From assembly GCA_965655095.1 (NCBI GenBank), contig OZ296654.1, forward strand, positions 50,902,001 to 50,966,000: a DNA stretch of 64,000 nucleotides, in the 5' to 3' direction. The number at the start of each line of letters is the position of its first letter. Positions within the stretch are counted from its first letter, which is position 1. A program made the position numbers and the translations under genes. The notes below the pieces were generated by a model. It made no database searches, had not been told where the DNA came from, and was given only the letters and a program-made list of their open reading frames with translations. Positions 7,048 to 64,000 of the stretch are shown here, in pieces. This stretch comes from Haplodiscus bocki. Lineage: Eukaryota.

Positions 7048-7577
7048 TTTCCAATTTTTCTTGTCAAGTAGTCTCTGGATTTCTTGGGTGGAATTTTGAG
7101 CTGACGGAGCAGCTAAAACCATCCTAATCTGTCTAATATTATAATATTGATTTCTCACGCAAACGATCAAAAATCCTGACAAATTCCTCTGATGGCAGGC
7201 ATGTATCTTGTAGGTTTCTTCATGTTCTACTTTGACTAGATGAAATCACCAATTTTCAAAATTATAAATGCTAAAGTGATCCTCCTATTACTGGACCTTT
7301 TGAAAACGTGTCAAAAAGTGTAATCAAATTGACTTCGGCTTTGTTTCATTCCTATTATCCAAAAGTTTACTGAAAAACTATCCGAATTTCTATTCAAGTT
7401 ATCCGCACTCTTGAAATTTTCCGAGCGTGCAAAAAGTACGGATAATCAATAATCTATTGTATTTTTTGTATATGAAACTAAGGGCTTCGGATTAGATACC
7501 AATGATGCGAGCGAAAGTTCAGTATTAAGCATATTTTCATGATTGTCTTTTGATCAATTTGTTTTTTTTTTGTTCAG

Positions 7578-9311
7578 ATTCATTTCACGGCTTTGTCGAT
7601 TGCTCTTCAACAGCAAGCATTGACAGCGGGAAGCGGCTCAGACAGTTTCCTAAATCATTCTTCAGTTTCCTCTATCAACAAAAACTCTGGCACACCCAGA
7701 ATGCCCCAGGATTCCTTTAGAGGAGGATTGGCAACTTCAGCGACAGGTACATGGGGTAGTAATGCTGCTGCTGGTAGTGGTAGTTACGGATACAATTGTT
7801 CTTCGGGGACAACAGGAAATCGCTTGCGTGCTTTTCACAACATGAGTTCCAAACACAGAAAGAGAAACAACGGGAACCAACATCAAGAGAAGGAGTCACC
7901 ATGCCTGCATTTTCATACCATTTCACGAGGGGGAATTCTGAGTGGCAGAAATGCGTGGGGTAAATGTTGCACCGATGTTGATAAGAAAAAGCCACTTGAA
8001 CAAGAAGTGTGTGCTGATGAAAAGAGGAAAGAGAGGAAATGGACGGCAGAGAATCTTATGGGTGATTCCATGTTTGGAAATCTGTTTTGGGAAGAAAATG
8101 GAAAAGAGTTGGCTGACACCAAAGAAAACACTGGGGGTGAAGATTGTTTCGTAGTGAAGGAAGAGGGTGAGAAAACAAAATCGAATGATTTGAAGGGGGT
8201 TGAATTGAGTCACTTGAATGTGCAAAAATTTCCTGAAAAAGATGGAAGTATTGTAAAGGAAGCAAAAGTAAAGCTTTCGCAGTTAAATGATCTTATGGTT
8301 GTGCCCGCTACGTCATCTGAGAGGGTTTTTGTGGCTGGAAATGGGTATTTTGATCAACATTGTTCTTTGAACTCGACTGCTGTGTCTCCCCTCATTGGTA
8401 CAATATCCCCTCTGGAATACCCGCTGAGCAATGTTTCTATTCCCCCGGCGGCCGCTGCATTGGGAGGAGTAGAAACAGGAAGTCAGATTTATTCTTTAAC
8501 TTCTGCTCACTTTTCAGCCGAGCAATTATTCCCTGTATCCGCCGCCGCCGATACTTCTTCTGAAGTAATATCCCCTCATTTTATGCCTCCCTCGGCAGCA
8601 AGTGCACTTGTTACACCATCACTTTCCCAGGAGTGTAACTGTACTATCGCGGTGTCCAATGTGTTTACTACCTCAGTCACCCCTACCTCTCCCATTGCTG
8701 ATCCACAGTTGTCCCCGTCACCAGTTTCTCCTTTCACCTACCCCTACAACTCTTATTGGCCCCCATCAACATATTTTGCCAACGACACAAAACTTCTGGC
8801 TGCGGCAACTGCACTTGATAACAACAACACATCTGGATATTTTGCCAATACCACCGACCTAATGGGAGTAGGAGGATCCACACTGCCTTTCTCTATTGCT
8901 TCTGCCTCGACGGCTGCTGCACAATCTACTCTGCTACCCCATGTACCGCTAGGAGGCGCTGCGCCTCTTTTACAAAGTGGGGCAAACAGTGACTTCTATG
9001 TTCTGATAAGAAACGTGCCTCTTTCGGCGCCCGACTCTTTACTCGCATCTTTACTCTCAACTCAAACAAATAACTTGAAAAGTTTTAATCGCAACAACAC
9101 TCAATGCAAACTCTTGTTCGCAACGGTTCAAGACGCTCTTCTCAGTGTACAACTTCTGCATGGCAAAAAGTTTTGTGGAAATTTTCTGGAAGCTACCATC
9201 GCATCAAGACCTTGCATGGCTGCTCTTACTAACACCACTCAAAACCCATTCGCAACAACTGCAAGTTATCCCGTTTTTGGTACGTACGGAGGAATCCCTT
9301 TCGTCGTCTGA
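7578..9311 (+). CDS. Long, probably terminal coding exon of a host gene: Ser/Pro/Ala-rich low-complexity protein with a C-terminal RRM-like domain
   Basis: Uninterrupted 577-codon frame in DNA otherwise full of stops. An in-frame polypyrimidine + CAG acceptor ends at 7577. The C-terminus FYVLIRNVP...CKLLFATVQDALLSVQLLHGKKFCGNFLEATIA has RRM spacing. No ATG at the ORF-track start (TTG). Confidence 0.8.
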   Translation: MHFTALSIALQQQALTAGSGSDSFLNHSSVSSINKNSGTPRMPQDSFRGGLATSATGTWGSNAAAGSGSYGYNCSSGTTGNRLRAFHNMSSKHRKRNNGNQHQEKESPCLHFHTISRGGILSGRNAWGKCCTDVDKKKPLEQEVCADEKRKERKWTAENLMGDSMFGNLFWEENGKELADTKENTGGEDCFVVKEEGEKTKSNDLKGVELSHLNVQKFPEKDGSIVKEAKVKLSQLNDLMVVPATSSERVFVAGNGYFDQHCSLNSTAVSPLIGTISPLEYPLSNVSIPPAAAALGGVETGSQIYSLTSAHFSAEQLFPVSAAADTSSEVISPHFMPPSAASALVTPSLSQECNCTIAVSNVFTTSVTPTSPIADPQLSPSPVSPFTYPYNSYWPPSTYFANDTKLLAAATALDNNNTSGYFANTTDLMGVGGSTLPFSIASASTAAAQSTLLPHVPLGGAAPLLQSGANSDFYVLIRNVPLSAPDSLLASLLSTQTNNLKSFNRNNTQCKLLFATVQDALLSVQLLHGKKFCGNFLEATIASRPCMAALTNTTQNPFATTASYPVFGTYGGIPFVV

Positions 9312-36590: not shown

Positions 36591-37873
36591 TTATTTACCT
36601 TCTATTATCTTATTTGCATCTGAAATCATTTCAATTTGTCTATGTCTGATTAATATAACAAATAACATCGCATTAACATTAGCAGGATCAGTATTAAATT
36701 CTTCAAACAGTTGAATTTTTTGGGAGTTATTTGATCTACTTGATTTCTAAGATCTTTTACTTGAACAGGATATTTGTTTTGCATGTCATTATAACTTATA
36801 AAAGGATTCATCAATTCTTCTCTAACGTATTCTTTATATAAAAATTTTAGGTCTCTTTATTGATCTAGATAATCTTTTCCGGGAAAATTTGAGAGAACAG
36901 CGTCCTTTGGATATCTATAACCATCTCTTTCAATAAAAAGATTTTTTTCCATTGACATTATCGAAAATTGGTATATTGGTATTTTTTTATCAGGTGCAGC
37001 TATTCTATCAGCTGCTTGAAAACTAGCGACCAAACTTTTGGGACTATTAACATGTTGGGCAGCACCAAAATCGACTTGAAGTTCATTACCATCTGTTGAT
37101 AGTTTACGTTCTGTATACCATGAATCACATGTGCTTATATAACTATTTTTATTAGATTCATTAAACATAACTTGTGTTTCAGTATTTGGAATCAATATAG
37201 GGACAAACAAATATAAACTATTAACTGTCACAGTAATATCATCACCTACTGTTGTGAATATAAAATCTTGTAAGTCATTTGTTCTAAACGTTAAATGAAA
37301 ACCAAGGTTTTTAGTAACCTTTTTAAAAGTTTAACAAAAACCATATATATGTTCTAAAGGAAGTTGACTTTTAATTTTTCCTCGATTGCCTTCTCTGTGA
37401 TTGTTATTAAGCGTTTGTTTTAACGAGGTGTTGTTGCTCCCATTTTGTGTTCCATCAATATTATCGAAATGTGATAACAATTTGCCATCTTTACTAGTTA
37501 AAGCTCTCAAAATGGTGGATAATTGTCCCAAAAAATTGACTTACTCAATCTCCGTGCCTCCGGTAATCGATATTTTTCCTTCCTTAAAACAATATGCGTA
37601 TGCGTTGTTCACCAATCTCAATACTTTGTTTGTAGCAGGATCGCTGGTAAAGTTGAAATTGTTACCAATCGCTTTACGTGATGTTATATCAAAACCAAGA
37701 TGAGAATTACCAATTTGATGATGAATATTTTTTTTACCGAATATGAATTCAACATTTTGATCAGGGTCGTTCAATAAAGCAGCTTGTTGATGATATATTT
37801 TCAAAAAATCTCGTTTTACAATAGAATTATCAATTGGTTTGTTATCTATTAATTGATAATCTTCTAAGTTCTT
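36591..37873 (-). pseudogene. Major capsid protein (double jelly-roll type)
   Basis: About 425 codons across ORF fragments 37541, 37331 and 36857; LVNNAYAYCFKE, LPLEHIYGFC, DGYRYP; position beside the protease. Confidence 0.8.
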
Positions 37874-41890: not shown

Positions 41891-44800
41891 AACGAGTTTC
41901 ATCAGAATTTTTTCTGATTCTCATTTGAACGGTCTCTCTTGCAGCTTCTTCATTGTTCTCTTTCTAAGTCGTTTTGTTCTGCTCTTAAGTAATCAATTGT
42001 TCTCCTCTCTCACTTTTCTCCCATTTCTGCAATTAATCTCGTCTGGACCCGAAAACTTGCTGCATAGGTGCATATTTAGTGATATTTTTCCTTCGTTTCT
42101 ACAAAAAGACATCCTTTTTAGGTAAGAATCCGTCAATAGACACCTTTGTTTGTTATCCACTCCTGTAACAGCAGACGTTTGTTTTAAATCTGTTGCTTTG
42201 GCACAACGGTTCGATCTAAGTTGCCGTCGAACATGAGTCAAACATCAAAAAGTGGTTATGTTGAAACGTCTTTTTGAATAGTTAGCTATAAACACCAAAC
42301 ATATTGTTCTCTTGTCCTGTAACAGTAAAACACTGCAAGCAAAATGGGTCATTTATTGTGAGTGGTCTCGGAGGTCAATTTTTTGAAAAATGGTGATCTT
42401 TCTCGCAGAACTTTTTTTTCGCTTGTTGTTGATCCTAACCTCAAAAAATCCCGACAAGTGTTCACTCTCAAATCTGATTGAGCTCTGTTTTCCGTCTTCA
42501 GTGGATCATTTTTCTTCATTTTCTTTTTTATAGTTTGTATGGGATTGAAATCTGTCCCATGTTTTAGTTGGACCTTTCGCTTCCGTTTATATTTGGTGGC
42601 ATGTTTTCCTAAACCATTGGTTTTTTTCCTTACCCTTCTTGTTGAAATTTTAAGAAAAAAACCACTTCTTTCTAATTCCTTTCAGCTTGATTTTTCATTA
42701 GAAGTGAACGAAGTTGAAAGAGAACATGATCACTTTTCAATTGTTTTTGGCCTTCAAATAACAAATATTCGTAGACATCAAAGAGGGACGTGTTCAAGAA
42801 GAACACGCTTGCTTGTTAATGATATTTTCAACACCACAAGACTTTTTTCCAAAACATAACTCCACATAATTGATTGTTTTCCACTAGCTCGTTAACATCA
42901 TGGCAGTTGTTTTTTTTTATTTTGGAAATCACACATACTATGTTAATGAAAATGAAAGTTTTGATCGAGTGATTTTTAGTCTGACAATGTTTCTCACTTT
43001 TCCCACATTAGTGCTGACGCCGATACTACGAAGAACATACCACCTCAATTCATTTAGCCCAAGAGGTCACAAGTTCAGTTTTTATCAACAAAAACATTTC
43101 CAGATCACACTGAAGTTTTTGCCGAAAATGAAGTGGCTCTCCATATAACGCAAACACAACCATTAGTTAGTCTCATAGAAACATTACTACTTTTTTTAAC
43201 TAAGAACACAATACCCTTCATTTCCCCTCTACTTACGAATTACAAGATCCTTGTTTGAATACTCCGGGAATGAAAACAAAAACTCCATTTGTTTCAGCAA
43301 CGTTGAAACAAACCTGACAGCTTAATTTAACCCACATTAGATCCATTGTTTCTACACCCGCATCTGCAGTTTCAGCCCAGTCTATAGCACAGCATTCACA
43401 TCGAAAATATGAAGTCTTTCCTTCCTTCTAAATACTCTTATAACATCTCCTCGGCAAAATGAAACTTCATACATACAACAACCTGCTCATTACATTCAGT
43501 CTAAAACCAATTCTTCCGCCAAACATTACCAACCAATTTTTACAGTCGACGCCTATTAAATCACATCCCACAAGTACAACTTTTTTTTGATTGTCCGTAA
43601 ATCTTTCGAACAGGTACTAATCTTCCATCATTCAAAAAAGACTCTTTCCTATCAATCTACCCTCCATGAACTAAAGCGACAACTCTAACTTCCGTCTCCA
43701 GATAACTACACAGAGAATCTTCATTTTTCGGTTCATCGAATTGAATATTTTGGGTTAAATCAAGGTCATCCTAACCTAAATCTGCAACCGTAAATTTTCT
43801 TGAATGAATTGAAAACTTTCCCACAGGTTTCACTTTCCTCTGGAAGTATTCAATTTATCAAAGAATTTGAAGATCAGTTTTTTCGATTCATCTGACGAAG
43901 ACTGTTTGAGACTATGAGTTGCCCCTGACCTCAAACGGTTGCTGTTGGCAAGTCTTCAAAAATTCAGAATTGGTTTTAAGAAGATTGCTTCATCAAAATG
44001 GGTCTTCACACGGTGAACCCCTTCAAAAGGATCCACTTTTTTATATTCGCGCAGTATTTTGACGAAAAGATATGCAGTTGAAGTTGATTTGGATCCTAAT
44101 ATTTTCAAATCAAATAATTGATCGATTATTTGAATCGTGACCCCTTGACCCATCAAACCTTCAGTCTCAGATGTAGCATGTGCAAATAAAATTTACAAAT
44201 CAGTGATATAATTAATGTAGGCTTGTGCACATGTTCTTTTCAGTGGAGAGACAACTGCTTTTATTGGATTTTCTGCTGGTGATGAGTTTTTTTCGTTTGT
44301 GTTTAATATGGTCCAATTTGACTTCCAATTTTTTTCACAGATGAATTGCCCTAGTTCTTTAACTTTTTAAAGGATGCAGGTTCAAAGTCACTAAATATTG
44401 GCAGAAACAGAAACTAAAAGAAAAAGTGATGATAAGTTAAACAACTATAAAATGTCATGCTTACTCAGGAAGGCTCAAAATTTTCAAAAAGTCCCGTTCC
44501 CAAACCTTTGGCAAAACTCTTACATGACGAGTAACTACTCTGCCAGAAAAAAATTCAAACTAAATTAAGGAAAATAAAGGCAACCCAACTAAAAGTTGGT
44601 AAAAGCGACTCGAGAAATCAAGATTTAAAAAGACGCAAAAACGCCTCCTGACCTTTGTCGTGACTCAAAATTTCCTTCAAACCCAGTAGAATGTGGTACT
44701 ACATAAATTTCATATACATATTCTCTGAAGTTTTCTAATAACACAAATATATCCATGTCATACTTACTTGCTCTAGACGTATCCTTCCTTCATCTTTCTT

Positions 44801-45315
44801 GCCTGCATTCACCAAATTCACCTTCCATAAACGTTATTTTGTGTAGTCTGAAGGAAACAGAACTATTACATTATTTGGTTGATTTAGTTTGGAAAAAGAC
44901 TAATTCTTTCAGATACTGCTGCACCAAGAAATTGGGTTATTCAAAGTAGAACTTTAATATTAAGACAAAATGAGTGTATTCCAACAAGCACATATTCTGT
45001 TTAGCATTTCATTACCATTCCCACTGCTTTGCGATGAGCTGGGCAGGCAAAGAAAACATTGTGGATTCATAAAGGCTGGAAAGCTAAGCCCGCGGCTCTT
45101 TTCTGCGATACCAGACAGAGAGGAAGACTAAAGACATTGACAACGTTTAATTCGTGAAAAATTCGAACTTTATCTTGAAACTTTATCATAATGAGCTTGG
45201 TGTTAGTAATTAAGATTTCTGGGAAACGTTTCTGCCAGTGAGCGAATTTCCACGCGCCAACAGGACCGTGCCGGAGCTTCTTTCAGCTGTTGACTTCAAG
45301 GGTTTAGAACTTACA

Positions 45316-47161
45316 GGTCGCGCGGGGGTTGCAGATTACTTTGCTTCAAATTTATATTGACAAATACTTGTCAACTTTCTTAGTGTGCGGCCATTACTGA
45401 TTAAACAAGCTTGAGTCTCAAAGTTGCCTTGCCGGCCCGCGAGAACAAAATAGAGCGTGAATTCGCTGGCAAGGACTTAGTGAACAGCTATGGAGTGGTT
45501 GAAAGATTTGTTAAGAATTTATTCAGAGCAAGCAGTTCTATTATATAAACCAAGAAAGTTATGGCTTCAATTTTAATACTCGTTATGTCAAGCTTGGTTA
45601 ACATAGGGGACGGTACTGGTTTAGGCACATAAAATTTGGTTCAAATTTCACTCTATTCCAACATTATTCAAAGTAAGGAATTTAGCAGTTTTACCACTTT
45701 AGAGCTATTTGAACTAGATTATAAACACCTAACAATTTTATTTCAGAATGAAACTTCTAGTTTTTTTCAACTATATTTTAAGGAAGATAGAAAACATTGT
45801 TGCACGCGCTTTTAATTGTCGCGAAAGTAAAATACTAAATTAACGGTAGCTCCAGTAACCAAAAGTAATAACTTTTCTAACCTTGTAGGAGATGAGTTGC
45901 CATTGAGCACCATCGATTTGCATTAAGTCTGTTCTAGAACGGGGAGTAAATTCACCCGTCTTTTCTAGTAGTTTTTTTAAAAGTGTTCCTCTAAATCAGT
46001 TTGAGCTAAGACTAGGTAATTCGCGTAACGAATCAACCTAGCAATTTCTCTTAGGCCAGTACTTCGTTGTCAACCCGTAGAGTAAAATTTAGGGATTTTG
46101 TGACCGCTGGCTCAGTTCCGATCGGAAGTTTGGGTTAGTAACTAAGACACGGTAACTCGCTTTATGGCGTAGCAACCGTGCGATTCCTCCTAGGTTCAGG
46201 CAATTACCATCGGATAAAACCAAATGGACCTGAGTCTGATCGAAACAGGGTTAGTAAGTAATTTTAGCTAAGACTCAGCATTTTTTCACTTTAATGGAAG
46301 CAGCCAATAAAGGCACAATCCCAAATGGAAGGACCACTGAGCGATTTCTCTTAGGTATCGGGAAAATTTAATAATTGAGCTCTTGTTCAGAGCAATCTTC
46401 GTAGCAACACTTATTCAGAGTATCTGCTTACGGTACCCGATATTAATTAACTAAGTTTTCTGGCGAGATGTAATCTACCAGGGTTAGTTATTTTCGATAC
46501 TAACAGTTTGTTCAATAACTTCAGTATATATTGGTGCACTGTTTGCATTTCTTTCCTTTTGGTCTTTGAATAGTAGTTTCCGCCTTTGAATAGTAGGGAT
46601 ATTCCAAAGTCGAAGAGCTTTTTGGTCAAAATTGAAGAAATTTGGAATTTGGTCCGAATTTCTCAATTTTCTGAAGTTTCGAAGATTTTAAAGAAAGAGT
46701 TAGAATTTTAAGTTTTTTTCTGTTTTGGAGGTGGTGGTTGACGGTAGGCGATCAGGAAAATTATGATCTTTCGTGTTGGCCGCCGGCGCTCAATCTTTCC
46801 GAGCTCTCGTACTTTTCAAGGTTATGAGCAAGTACGGTAAGCCTTCCGCCAAGGAGCACCAATTATGGTGATCCGTGAAAAAGCGTCAAAAAATGAAGGA
46901 AGGAGTGCCGTGCGTGAAGCTATAAAATCAAACTCCGAGAACAGTGGGGTAACAATTAGAAAAGCTTCGTTGATATCCGTCTGAGGCATGGCAACGAAAT
47001 TTTGAAGTTTCAAAATGTGCAATTCCAACTTTGTTACCGCTCTCCAACAACTGTCGCTCCAAACGTTAGGTTGCTATTATTACTTCTATTATGTCATTTC
47101 TAAATTTAGAACTAGCACTGTTCAGCCTTATGGCCTGTTTAGCGTTATGGCTAACTCGACA
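45316..47161. mobile_element. Probable solo LTR (LTR-2), 1.85 kb
   Basis: Interrupts a dispersed repeat; imperfect terminal IR GGTCGCG / CTCGACA; the minus strand starts TG and has AATAAA near its 3-prime end; TSD ambiguous (CAGG/GAGG). Confidence 0.55.
46004..46488. ncRNA. Three tandem candidate structured-RNA modules (CTAAGA / CRATTYC / TCYTAG ... GGGTTAGT)
   Basis: Fixed motifs with different but complementary inner stems in each copy. Confidence 0.65.
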
Positions 47162-48699
47162 GAGGTTACCCCTAAGGATTACGTCATGTTATTGGTCCAC
47201 TTGATCGCGTCCCCTTCCTCTCTGGAACCTGACACGAGTAGTCGAACACCACAGTTGCAAACGGTCCGGGCAACTGACATTTTTCCGTGGTCCAGAACTG
47301 GATTGTCTGTCAACTGCAGTCATGTTAACAGATATTGTAGCAGGTTCCTATCACAAAGCCTTCCTCCAATATTCAGCTTTTGCTTGGCTCATTACGCTTG
47401 TACATGTAACACTCCACTACATCTACTCTGACTATGATCCAAATTTTGCTGGCCAAATCAAGCTTTTTGTTACTCATGCGAGCCGAATTGATACGAATGG
47501 TCTTTTTTGGAAAATGTCCCCCCCCCCATTAAAAAAGGATATTTTGTTGCTTCACTGAACAAAAAGTCAGCTTAATATCTCATTTAAGAATTTTCGCATT
47601 TTCCTTTCATTTCAGTGCCTAATATAGACTACGAAAATACAAAAGCATATGTTTGATAAGTGCTTGAGACTTGAAAATTTTGTTTAAATTTGTTATTTTT
47701 TGGTTCTCAAAAGTGAGCGAAAGCATTGCACTTTTTCTTTATATTTTGGATTCCCGCATTTTTGTTTCGAAACTTTCGAGCTACTAATCCAGACCAAATT
47801 AATACAAGAATGAAGTTTTCGTTTTTTTAATGTTTTTTGACAGTGTTGTTAATACAAAGATGAACAGCCAGATTGTGCAATAAATCAAGCTCATTAGAAC
47901 AAAAGGCGAAACACATCAACCACTTTACGGGAGCGTACAGAATGTAAAAACTTCAGAAACACCATAAATTTTCAGAAGACGAAAAGCTCCCCCTAGGAGT
48001 AAATTATGCTTTAGGGCGACACCAATTTGGGCTTTCATTAAGTTTGAGGGTTTCCAAGTTACTTTTTTGGGCTACACATTTACAAAATTTAGGCATATTT
48101 CAATGCAAAAAGTTTCACATTATCCCAGAACTGAGTTTTTTTTCGATTCTAATTTGCAATTTTTTCAGGCGAGGAACTTGAAAAATGCCTTCGAGTTTTT
48201 TAACCACGTATCTAGCTATTAAATTCATATTATCTAATTTTCTTTGCTTCAGGCTCGAGAATATATTGTAGGAATAAAAATGGTACCGCATGGTGCTTGT
48301 ATCCCACGTGATTAATATTTTTTCGCCAATCGCAGCACAGTTTTGTTACAAAAAGGATTCTGAACTGCCTCTTGCATATACCACTCTGAAATTGCACAGC
48401 ATAGCAAAATGAGCTTTTTTTTTACAAAAATTGCCGTAAAAATTTCCGGGTAGCTCAGTCCTAATCAAGGTAATTGCTTCTTGTCTACCATCTCTCGAAA
48501 ATGCAACAATTGTCAAAGTAAGTTTACAGTGTCAAAGTCGAGGCAATTAAAGTACAAAAATACCCAAAGATAGCTAAAAATACAAACTGATTAATCATTT
48601 GAATTATTGATGGAGAAAAGCTGTGACTCAATTAATTGCAAGTTGGGGGGGGGGGGCTGCGCGTAATTCGCTAGGGGTAGATACTGGAAACCAACCGCT

Positions 48700-49150
48700 G
48701 TTCCAGAGGAGAAGACGAATGGATCACGTGGATTGGAAATATGACGTGATTCTTTTGCCCAACCCATAGTTCCTAGAGTCCTAGAGACCTGAAGTCACCA
48801 TGTAAAAGTGAATTCGGCAATAAATTCGTGCACAAGCTGAAAATGTAATTTCTCAAAAAAAAATCAATTAATGATATTAAATCCCTAAATGAAAAAATTT
48901 TCTGGGTTGAGTCTAAGTCATCCCTTGTCTGTTCTGGTGAACCGCTCTCTGTTTTTAAGCTTTTCTGTCGATGGTGTCGGGGAAAAGGGGCGCATGTAAT
49001 GAATTTCCCGCCTTCATGATGTCGTTTTGCTCATTTGCTTGTCGCCCAACATGTCGCCAATGTTCGACTTTGACTACTACGAATTTCCTAACTAATATGA
49101 AACTCATAAACTTTTCAACTCATATTGCAAAGGCTTAGCCTAAGGTCTCC
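48700..49150 (+). repeat. Dispersed repeat, GGTTCCAGAG family
   Basis: Shares GTTCCAGAG, ATGACGTGA, GATGGTRTCG...AAGGGGCGC and AGGTCTCC with 56428-56880. Confidence 0.7.
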
Positions 49151-62469: not shown

Positions 62470-63298
62470 CTTTTTGTAAACGAAATTTATAGCAAACCGG
62501 CCAGAAAGCATTATCCCTCACACAAAACTGATGTAGTCATATCGATGCCATTTGGTCTTTGTATTTTTTAGACCTCAAAGATTATGGTCCTGGAAATAAT
62601 AGAGGATATAGATATGTTTTAGTTATCAAAAACAATTTCTCAAAATTTGTTTGGACAGTCCCTCTCGAAAATCAAAATGCTCAAACAATAAAAGACTCTT
62701 TCGGAAATATTCTCAAAAGTTCAAAAAGAAACCAAAGTTAATCGCAACAGATCGAGGTAAGGAATTTTATAACAGTTTTATTGAAAATATCCTAATTAAC
62801 AATAACATTAAGCATTATTCTGGAAACACATCCTTAGGAGCTGTTTTTGCGGAAAGATTCAATTGTACTATAAGAGATCTTCCTAAAAAACCTGTTTTTG
62901 AGAAAGTTAATTGGAATTAGGTTGATGTTTTATCAATAACACACAAACAATAGAATAATAGAATTCATTTTTCTACTAAACTAACTCCTATCGAATCTTC
63001 TTTAAGAAAGAACGAAAGATATGTTTATCTTAATTTATTAGACAAACGGAAGAAAAAAAAACCAAAATTTCAAGTAAACAACCTCGTTTGAGTTGGTGAT
63101 CTAGGAAAAACGTTCTCAAAACGTGATACAACTAATTGGTCTTATTAAGTGTATAAAATTACAGGAATTATTAATGATACAATACCGAGTAATCGCATTG
63201 ATAAGTTACCAGAGCGTTATATCGAAGCCTTGTTGAAAAAGACTGAATTAGCAATGAAGGAAATTAAAGATGTTATGAAAGAATTAAATATCACTTAG
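62450..63298 (+). pseudogene. Retroviral-like (rve) integrase, element 2
   Basis: FSKFVWTVPL, IATDRGKEF, FAERFN; frameshifted. Confidence 0.92.
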
Positions 63299-64000
63299 AT
63301 CAAATCAAAATGTCTTTCTCCATCACTACTCACAGATAGTAATTTATTCTTTAATAGAAGAGCATATCCAACTAAATTTGTCGCTATCAGAACGGGAGGT
63401 CCGAAGTTAAACCTTACTTTGATAGGTGGGGCTGAACTATAATCTTGATGATGACGAATATCAAAAACATATAAAATGTAACCCGGATTACCATCTCTAT
63501 AAAAATTAGGAGTTAGAAAATACTTTTGTGTAATATATGGTTGTAAATTATTATCTTTAGCTAAATGTCTAAAACGGGAAACAATTTCACCATACGCCTG
63601 TGAATAATCATCAATAGCATATTTACAATTTATTCCTGCATCAGGGAATTTTTCACTGCCGATAATGAATTGAGCATTTACTACACTTCGTCTGTAATAG
63701 GTATCATTATTCTGATGTTGTTGATTGAATTGATCTCTTTGCATAAACCCCACTATTACACAAATGGGTATATCAACACCAACGCCTACACCCAGCTCGA
63801 AAGTCCAGTTAATTTCAGTGGTTACATCTTTCATATAAGATGATCTTTTAATATATGACACTCCCGTTGGAGCTTTAGATACAATATGTCCTAACATTAA
63901 TTTTTGCTTCCTTATACTTGTAGTTTAGTGTGAAACATACCTACTTATAACGTCTATAATAACTCCTCTTGCCAAAGCAAGATTTGCTGCATCCTTAGCT
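63295..64000 (-). pseudogene. Major capsid protein, C-terminal half (partial)
   Basis: P..VIVGFMQ, IGSEKFP, YSQAY, YILYVFDIRHH pattern of a Polinton MCP second jelly roll. Confidence 0.8.

Follow-up and report, generated by a model that had tools for sequence, protein, structure and literature searches.

A 64,000-nucleotide stretch of Haplodiscus bocki DNA (hereafter, the window) contains an LTR-like insertion in which three head-to-tail units share a set of short motifs, while their paired segments differ from unit to unit and stay complementary. The locus raises the question of whether this three-unit module is a selected RNA structure and, if so, on which strand it lies, how far it extends beyond a single copy, and what it may do for the element that carries it. 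A preliminary description of the window gave coordinates for the module, its motifs, six named stems and a related bulged hairpin, all of which are found in the sequence. The bulge together with its closing motif, CRATTYCTCYTAG, occurs exactly three times, each time within the module, and has one one-mismatch match elsewhere in the window; 0.8 were expected, and none of 100 shuffles reached 4.

The LTR and its element family

Comparison of the flanks of genomic copies confirmed the limits first proposed for the insertion, which is a solo LTR of the family that we call A (Table 1). The LTRs end in TG...CA, as judged from the same flanks, and a 4-bp target-site duplication is present in 17 of 21 solo-type family A copies; the copy in the window has none, and its first base is altered. 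Element sense corresponds to the minus strand of the window, according to the PBS, the PPT and all element ORFs in copies with internal sequence. The 1.5-Gb assembly holds 1410 candidate copies of the module, and the 39 others that were scored are 89-91% identical.

Related copies reveal the plan of the element: a small ORF, gag with a CCHC knuckle, protease, a Macro-like segment and RT-RH-IN, followed by small ORFs, a class III env (PF24664), an ORF that we call ORF-X and a TRAF-like MATH ORF. TG...CA LTRs, PBS, PPT, gag, the PR-RT-RH-IN order and env are those of an env-bearing Ty3/gypsy element, and Ty3 is the nearest RT among solved structures. By its sequence features the family belongs to the errantivirus-type elements with a gB-like env, a group described as widespread in animals (PMC13524379). 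The Macro-like segment, between protease and RT, is a weak Pfam match. The TRAF-like ORF has a MATH domain and overlaps the end of ORF-X (L086:5193-6710, L088:4263-5651); it was likely captured from the host and is possibly a modulator of immune signalling. Adjoining the LTR, two 55-nt inverted arms (47174-47228 and 48700-48754) lie 1.5 kb apart and are 71% complementary, possibly the remains of an old DNA transposon.

Table 1. Positions of the LTR, the parts of the module, the candidate signals and the related features in other loci. Double-dotted coordinates refer to the window.
Feature	Location	Strand	Basis
Solo LTR, family A, env-bearing Ty3/gypsy (~1845 bp)	45316..47161	minus	Flank comparison; full elements L031-L034
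Unit 1 leading hairpin, starts with ACUAAC, family A only	46450..46488	minus	Copy alignment
Unit 1 domain I, closing stem AUCGGG/CCCGAU, long insertion	46357..46441	minus	Copy alignment
Unit 1 domain II, CUAAG/CUUAG helix, purine-rich 5' loop, G·U/C-G step, long stem-loop	46268..46354	minus	Copy alignment; covariance model
Unit 2 ACUAAC and short GAUC hairpin, family A only	46235..46256	minus	Copy alignment
Unit 2 domain I, UCAGG/CCUGA, 3' bulge	46196..46233	minus	Copy alignment
Unit 2 domain II	46142..46193	minus	Copy alignment; covariance model
Unit 3 ACUAAC and GAUC hairpin, family A only	46112..46139	minus	Copy alignment
Unit 3 domain I, GCCAG/CUGGC, A-rich 3' bulge	46055..46111	minus	Copy alignment
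Unit 3 domain II	46006..46054	minus	Copy alignment; covariance model
Terminal bulged hairpin, miniature domain II, CUAG closing helix, A-rich 5' bulge	45934..45968	minus	Counterpart in families A-E
TATA-like TATATAAT, 24 nt upstream of AATAAA; promoter or poly(A) upstream element	45540..45547	minus	
Poly(A)-signal-like AATAAA	45518..45523	minus	Common place relative to U5-side block, five families
ORF-X	L086:4687-5307, L088:3706-4329, L089:4203-4829		
CUUCGG-loop segment in C/E LTRs	L057:2976-3207, L065:1355-1460		78-86% identical to family F

Anatomy of the units

Numbered in sense order (minus strand), each unit consists of two abutting bulged stem-loops, domain I and domain II, with a link of 0-3 nt between them. 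This anatomy was drawn from 8 of 16 units, and bulge-to-loop pairing was followed in 13 of the 16. Domain I is made of a short G+C stem, an A-rich 3' bulge and a stem-loop; its closing stems differ wholesale between units yet pair (CCC/GGG, CCUC/GAGG, GCCAG/CUGGC, UCAGG/CCUGA, AUCGGG/CCCGAU). Domain II keeps UA(A/G)G in its 5' arm and UAG in its 3' arm, together with an R·U pair followed by a C-G pair; this step lies above a mostly purine-rich loop of 6-10 nt whose sequence varies freely. Among the 13 unit types, bulge-to-loop pairing revealed no consistent loop-loop pairing or pseudoknot. Two of the motifs first described as fixed, the 7-nt bulge and GGTTAGT (ACUAAC on the minus strand), are indeed fixed within family A but not beyond it: the bulge varies in sister families, and ACUAAY is found in 3 of 16 unit windows, all from family A, to which ACUAAC and its small hairpin are confined.

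Known RNA classes did not account for the units. On the sense strand the hammerhead core CUGANGA was present in 1 of 16 unit windows, on the antisense strand in 3 of 16; twister and pistol motifs were in none of the 16, and AAGACA, the gamma-CTE motif (PMC7551171), in 1 of 16 on the sense strand. The Rfam scan proposed at the outset, run over 44500-48000, returned nothing with an E of 5 or less, and six sister loci gave only 2 sub-threshold matches, both outside the arrays. The original judgement that no hammerhead, HDV, twister or pistol core is present thus stands, for HDV by way of Rfam only. A pattern for the module with other stems retrieved 1 rearranged copy from the assembly.

Near-invariant letters in helices that flank a variable loop point to a protein site and are unlike a catalytic core. 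Constant pairs around a variable loop, in variable copy number, would be the pattern of a protein-binding site, and we consider it probable that the module is a protein-binding array. Of the roles suggested at first, export and packaging survive, but a ribozyme, a nuclease block and an ssDNA structure are disfavoured because the loop varies, no consistent pseudoknot is seen and the wobble pairs follow the sense RNA.

Selection and strand within family A

We aligned 31 family A copies and dropped 2 that were second LTRs of the same elements, leaving 29. Rare changes were equally dense in paired and unpaired columns of these 29 copies (0.0235 and 0.0234, respectively). Variants shared by at least 3 copies, however, numbered 9 in 208 paired columns versus 47 in 347 unpaired columns (p = 0.0004), and inherited variants were 2-5-fold rarer in stems than in loops. 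The rare changes are mostly post-insertion, and the variants in at least 3 copies arose in active lineages. Since the helices had been drawn after the copies were seen, the test was repeated with blind definitions. The stems of the preliminary description gave 4 variants in 104 columns versus 35 in 379 (p = 0.10), mechanical pairing on the minus strand 7 in 184 versus 32 in 299 (p = 0.006), and mechanical pairing on the plus strand 10 in 218 versus 29 in 265 (p = 0.012). The direction of the stem depletion holds, and its strength varies with the helix definition.

The commonest forms of 104 pairs comprised 94 Watson-Crick pairs, 9 that are G·U on the minus strand, none that is G·U on the plus strand and 1 mismatch, a strand bias (9 vs. 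0, p = 0.004) opposite to the plus-strand preference claimed initially. Over 75 distinct units, G·U outnumbered A·C on the sense strand by 55 to 19. The folding z-score of the module was -3.26 on the minus strand and -1.53 on the plus strand. Folding energy gave no strand call among individual unit windows, the sense strand being preferred in 9 of 17, with domain I mis-delimited in several of them. A structured, sense-strand cis RNA is supported by sequence comparison, and on this evidence the module is very probably a selected sense-strand RNA structure. The preliminary view, that structure is under selection and the module is not a tandem repeat in decay, is supported, the stems being poor in shared variants, with one-off mutations equal in stems and loops, and the covariation score described below being above that of shuffles.

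The array in sister families

Homologues of env fell into five groups, A (that of the window) to E, which are ~60-87% identical and all in the same assembly; families at 66-75% RT identity were left out of the comparison. In 7 of 18 loci the sister LTRs can be aligned with the LTR of the window, but for no more than ~68 nt, and synonymous sites of ORF-X are saturated or nearly so between families. A homologous array nevertheless lies at the corresponding place in the LTR of each of families A-E, usually with 2-6 units, and ends in a hairpin equivalent to the terminal one of the window. With 18 units as input, a covariance model of domain II gave 98 matches from 42 sources; 3 are in the window, all of them in the module. 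Paired cells and covariation score exceeded 500 of 500 shuffles, with 89.1% of cells paired versus 85.5% and, in a second alignment, 86.4% versus 83.3%. In the latter alignment a one-column slide scored 0.149 versus 0.165, and the relatedness of the units inflates both the shuffle and the slide controls. Covariation is present as a score, but the count of double-change pairs does not rise above shuffles (111 and 219 of 500 shuffles reach it in the two alignments).

Families B-E also have 1-13 simple tandem hairpins with variable spacers, whose CUAAG...CUUAG arms are those of domain II. In its 528-bp LTR the distant family F, whose env is ~38% identical, has exactly one simple hairpin and lacks complex units. 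Two family D copies (L053, L056) are without all or most of the array.

A structured segment, which has a CUUCGG loop, is found after the PBS in family F (L228:5570-5890) but within the LTR in families C and E; its different places suggest that modules move between leader and LTR. The family F leader also has, before gag, ~12 tandem repeats of ~40 nt with a GGAG/CUCC hairpin (L228:5915-6380), a second kind of hairpin array. A promoter block of CCAAT, E-box and TATA is present 2-3 times in family D LTRs and once in B (LTRs of L049 and L050; L074:1050-1130).

Position in the transcript

A poly(A)-like signal is found ~200 nt before the LTR end, at a common place relative to a conserved U5-side block, in all five families. 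It is AATAAA in 27 of 34 family A LTRs and AATAAT or ATTAAT in 28 of 29 LTRs of families B-E. Because the array is upstream of this likely poly(A) site, we infer that every element RNA would carry it in the 3' UTR, and would have it at the 5' end as well in the case of an upstream promoter. A canonical TATA is present upstream of the array in 18 of 22 LTRs (6/8 in B, 6/6 in D and 6/8 in E), which, if it is the promoter, would place the array in a very long R. Families A and C have a TATA-like box downstream of the array, ~25 nt before AATAA(A/T); TATAWAW is present at this site in 15 of 34 family A LTRs, and no canonical TATA was seen upstream of the array in that family. If this box were the promoter, R would be short, as in RSV and MMTV (lengths in PMC3601003), and the array would be in U3. 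A candidate TATA/Inr at 46531/46500 was dropped, as by eye the stretch corresponds to sequence of sister LTRs that is not promoter.

A donor-like AAG|GTTAG (45877-45885, minus strand) lies ~50 nt past the terminal hairpin; it is CAG|GTGAG in L078 and is weakly kept in other families.

ORF-X, a candidate partner protein

ORF-X is an orphan ORF of ~206 aa behind the env stop in all five families, with a conserved C-terminal domain of ~70 aa. A pyrimidine tract and TAG directly precede its frame at 21 of 25 loci, and the intact B, C and D copies have no Met in ORF-X. Since frames were cut at stops, the start after TAG arises partly by construction, and it is the tract and the constant phase that serve as evidence. 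A phase-0 GT follows env codon 14-15 at 21 of 25 loci, is absent from all 3 B copies and is weak in C and E; coding for Glu-Val could by itself keep this GT. The in-frame acceptor and the env donor GT suggest that ORF-X is probably spliced. No GT..AG joint was present among the 15 of 359 joints listed (four DNA-looking runs of unrecorded type, on L086), which has no bearing on expression.

Over 35 codons of the C-terminal domain, dN was 0.01-0.45 and dS ranged from 0.3 to saturated, a pattern that indicates purifying selection. The predicted fold is a basic helix followed by a small SH3/Tudor-like beta barrel (pLDDT 76). The helix has 20-30% R+K over 50 aa, and its Arg-rich character fades in remote homologues. 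ORF-X had no Pfam or Atlas match and no significant fold match; the barrel found weak fold matches only (E 0.02 or worse, Z 4.2 or less), to SH3/Tudor/KOW/chromo-type domains, chromatin readers and the integrase SH3, so that it could also read chromatin or DNA. There are 106 unnamed homologues, in some of which coiled coils follow. An NES-like spacing, judged by eye, was noted in family A only. The post-env ORF of family F resembles ORF-X weakly (hhalign E 0.043, probability 1%).

Discussion

In the Rex and Rec systems, the accessory ORF lies between env and the 3' LTR and is spliced from the env start; ORF-X has a like position and would be spliced in a like way. By analogy with these systems, our best explanation, which we hold tentatively, is that the array may be a response element for ORF-X that licenses nuclear export of unspliced RNA. 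ORF-X would be made early, from spliced RNA, and would load on the repeated sites of the array, whereupon unspliced RNA would reach the cytoplasm and be expressed. Each domain II would be one site, formed by the UARG/UAG helix, the purine-rich asymmetric loop and the R·U/C-G step, with domain I stacked beside it, and avidity would be tuned through the number of copies. With its several small ORFs and its acceptors the element is complex, and so needs a means of exporting intron-containing RNA. The conservation of the array across families whose LTRs cannot be aligned and whose ORF-X synonymous sites are saturated also argues for this reading. The array and ORF-X are co-inherited, however, so that their co-occurrence proves no link, and the fading Arg-rich character, the two array-poor family D copies and the lack of a strand preference in folding energy speak against it. 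So do the weak fold matches of the barrel, the absent or weak env donor GT in families B, C and E, the p = 0.10 of the stems first described and the double-change counts that do not exceed shuffles. It is possible, but doubtful, that the lineage independently evolved a complete Rev/RRE-type switch of a spliced reader and an expandable array of recognition helices. As part of that same doubtful proposal, the reader would belong to a new family with a basic helix and a predicted Tudor/KOW-like barrel, and the number of copies, from a single hairpin in the distant family to ~20 simple and complex copies per LTR, would set the threshold between spliced and genomic RNA.

Other roles for the array have to be weighed against that of a response element for ORF-X. 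If it were a packaging and dimerisation signal recognized by Gag/nucleocapsid, the array would be part of R, where genomic RNA begins, and would nucleate particle assembly. The canonical TATA upstream of the array in families B, D and E is in keeping with such a role, as are the CCHC knuckle of Gag and the match between the C/E LTR segment and the family F leader behind the PBS, a leader with tandem hairpin repeats of its own. The loop of the unit 1 leading hairpin has a GUAC palindrome in 25 of 29 copies of family A, and the two GAUC hairpins are likewise kept in 25 of 29; in this reading they would serve as kissing loops. However, the palindromic hairpins are limited to family A, the TATA-like box of A and C is downstream of the array, and an array in the LTR would also be on spliced RNAs, a poor fit to packaging selectivity; we regard the packaging role as unlikely, and the kissing loops equally so. 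We think it likewise unlikely that a host factor reads the array, as NXF1 would for CTE-like export or a STAR/SF1 protein would through ACUAAC, with export, stability or localisation as the outcome. Such a partner would explain the stasis of the motifs, and the 3' UTR position, which holds under either LTR model, and the repeated purine-rich internal loops would suit it; exact ACUAAC is present three times in 18 and twice in 10 of the 29 copies. Against it are the rarity of AAGACA and ACUAAY among the sense unit windows and the absence of an Rfam match.

ORF-X bound to the array might also stimulate transcription as in a TAR-like nascent-RNA element, its barrel contacting chromatin or the elongation machinery. 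We consider this quite improbable: the array is downstream of TATA in B, D and E, its stems are bulged, the weak fold matches are Tudor/KOW/chromo-like and the short family F LTR has a single hairpin, but the complex units are at least 300 nt from TATA, family A has no canonical upstream TATA, and in D and E simple hairpins occur on either side of TATA boxes. Self-cleaving ribozymes and exonuclease-resistant RNAs usually come in tandem copies, and a multi-helix unit with a conserved GU(C)-N-UAG near its 3' end would befit a new class of either. That reading is highly improbable, since loop letters vary freely between units, consistent loop-loop pairing is lacking among the 13 unit types, known cores do not recur, and an autonomous element would suffer from being cut in both LTR ends. 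Finally, the repeats might have a DNA-level or neutral origin, slippage having multiplied either inverted CTAAG/CTTAG sites for a factor or palindromes left by template switching. CTAAG/CTTAG is indeed one motif inverted, copy numbers vary, some copies have lost the array and folding energy has no strand bias. Yet the spacers remain self-complementary from ~11 to 77 nt, G·U pairs are biased to one strand and inherited variants are depleted in stems, which makes such an origin very unlikely.

Among known systems, HTLV-1 Rex/RxRE and HERV-K Rec/RcRE come close, with a structured element in the LTR. RxRE is in the 3' LTR of all HTLV-1 transcripts (PMC7551171), where Rex acts on it for export of unspliced RNA (PMC7551171; PMC10746203), and Rev-like partners have an arginine-rich domain (PMC10746203). 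The present element differs in being an invertebrate-type Ty3/gypsy element rather than a retrovirus, in having a modular head-to-tail array of variable number rather than one branched fold, and in a candidate partner with a predicted SH3-like barrel; it has no sequence or Rfam match, and its function is putative. C. elegans Cer1 is a Ty3/gypsy element with a spliced accessory protein, CERV, needed for export of its genomic RNA (PMC10309623). However, CERV, which is 517 aa long, forms rings and has a Cys loop, and that report, as far as consulted, names no RNA target for it (PMC10309623), whereas here the RNA is defined and the role of the protein putative. MPMV CTE, gamma-CTE and SPRE, too, are cis RNAs that promote retroviral expression and in which loops or motifs are repeated (PMC7551171; PMC8579622), but in the present array AAGACA is not conserved, the hairpins are side by side rather than in one long rod, and the whole is inside the LTR. 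Described errantivirus-type elements with a gB-like (class III) env share the gag-pol-env order, TG...CA LTRs, tRNA PBS and Ty3-like RT; the Macro-like segment, ORF-X, the TRAF-like ORF and LTRs of 1.8-3 kb with RNA arrays set the present ones apart, and the main text of PMC13524379 makes no mention of MATH, accessory or splicing. Retrozymes and Penelope hammerheads also have repeated structured RNA in retroelement terminal repeats, according to the descriptions consulted, but the array has no recurrent hammerhead core and its element is autonomous.

We found no description of the motif in the literature searched, which covered few subscription papers; the consulted parts of PMC12440569 and PMC8579622 describe other things. 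Viral contigs gave 1 pattern match and no env relative, and metagenomes at least 119 pattern matches, of which 80 were scored together with the viral one using model R1; the best reached 20 bits and was partial, and nothing among the viral and metagenome contigs scored was convincing outside this assembly. Judged by its sequence, the array is real, selected, undescribed as far as searched and in no RNA family tested. Were the partner Gag or a protein of the host, the motif would still be a new RNA family. Retroviruses are well known for structured cis RNAs, which in LTR retrotransposons of invertebrates have hardly been described. Here an RNA motif is defined, has natural variants and occurs in thousands of genomic copies beside a defined orphan protein, which makes the export question testable; a protein-RNA pair that is orthogonal and has a repeatable site would also be of use as a tool.

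Other features of the window

Two low-GC blocks (28-42 kb and 58-64 kb) contain candidate jelly-roll fragments. The one at 63295-63924 (minus strand) is a weak double-jelly-roll match (E 4e-4, below the cut-off), and that at 36857-37330 (minus strand) looks similar to it; both are possibly decayed Polinton-like elements. At 7554-9311 (plus strand) is an open frame of 585 aa with no Pfam match, low in complexity and with an end that looks like an RRM by eye, which is probably a host exon.
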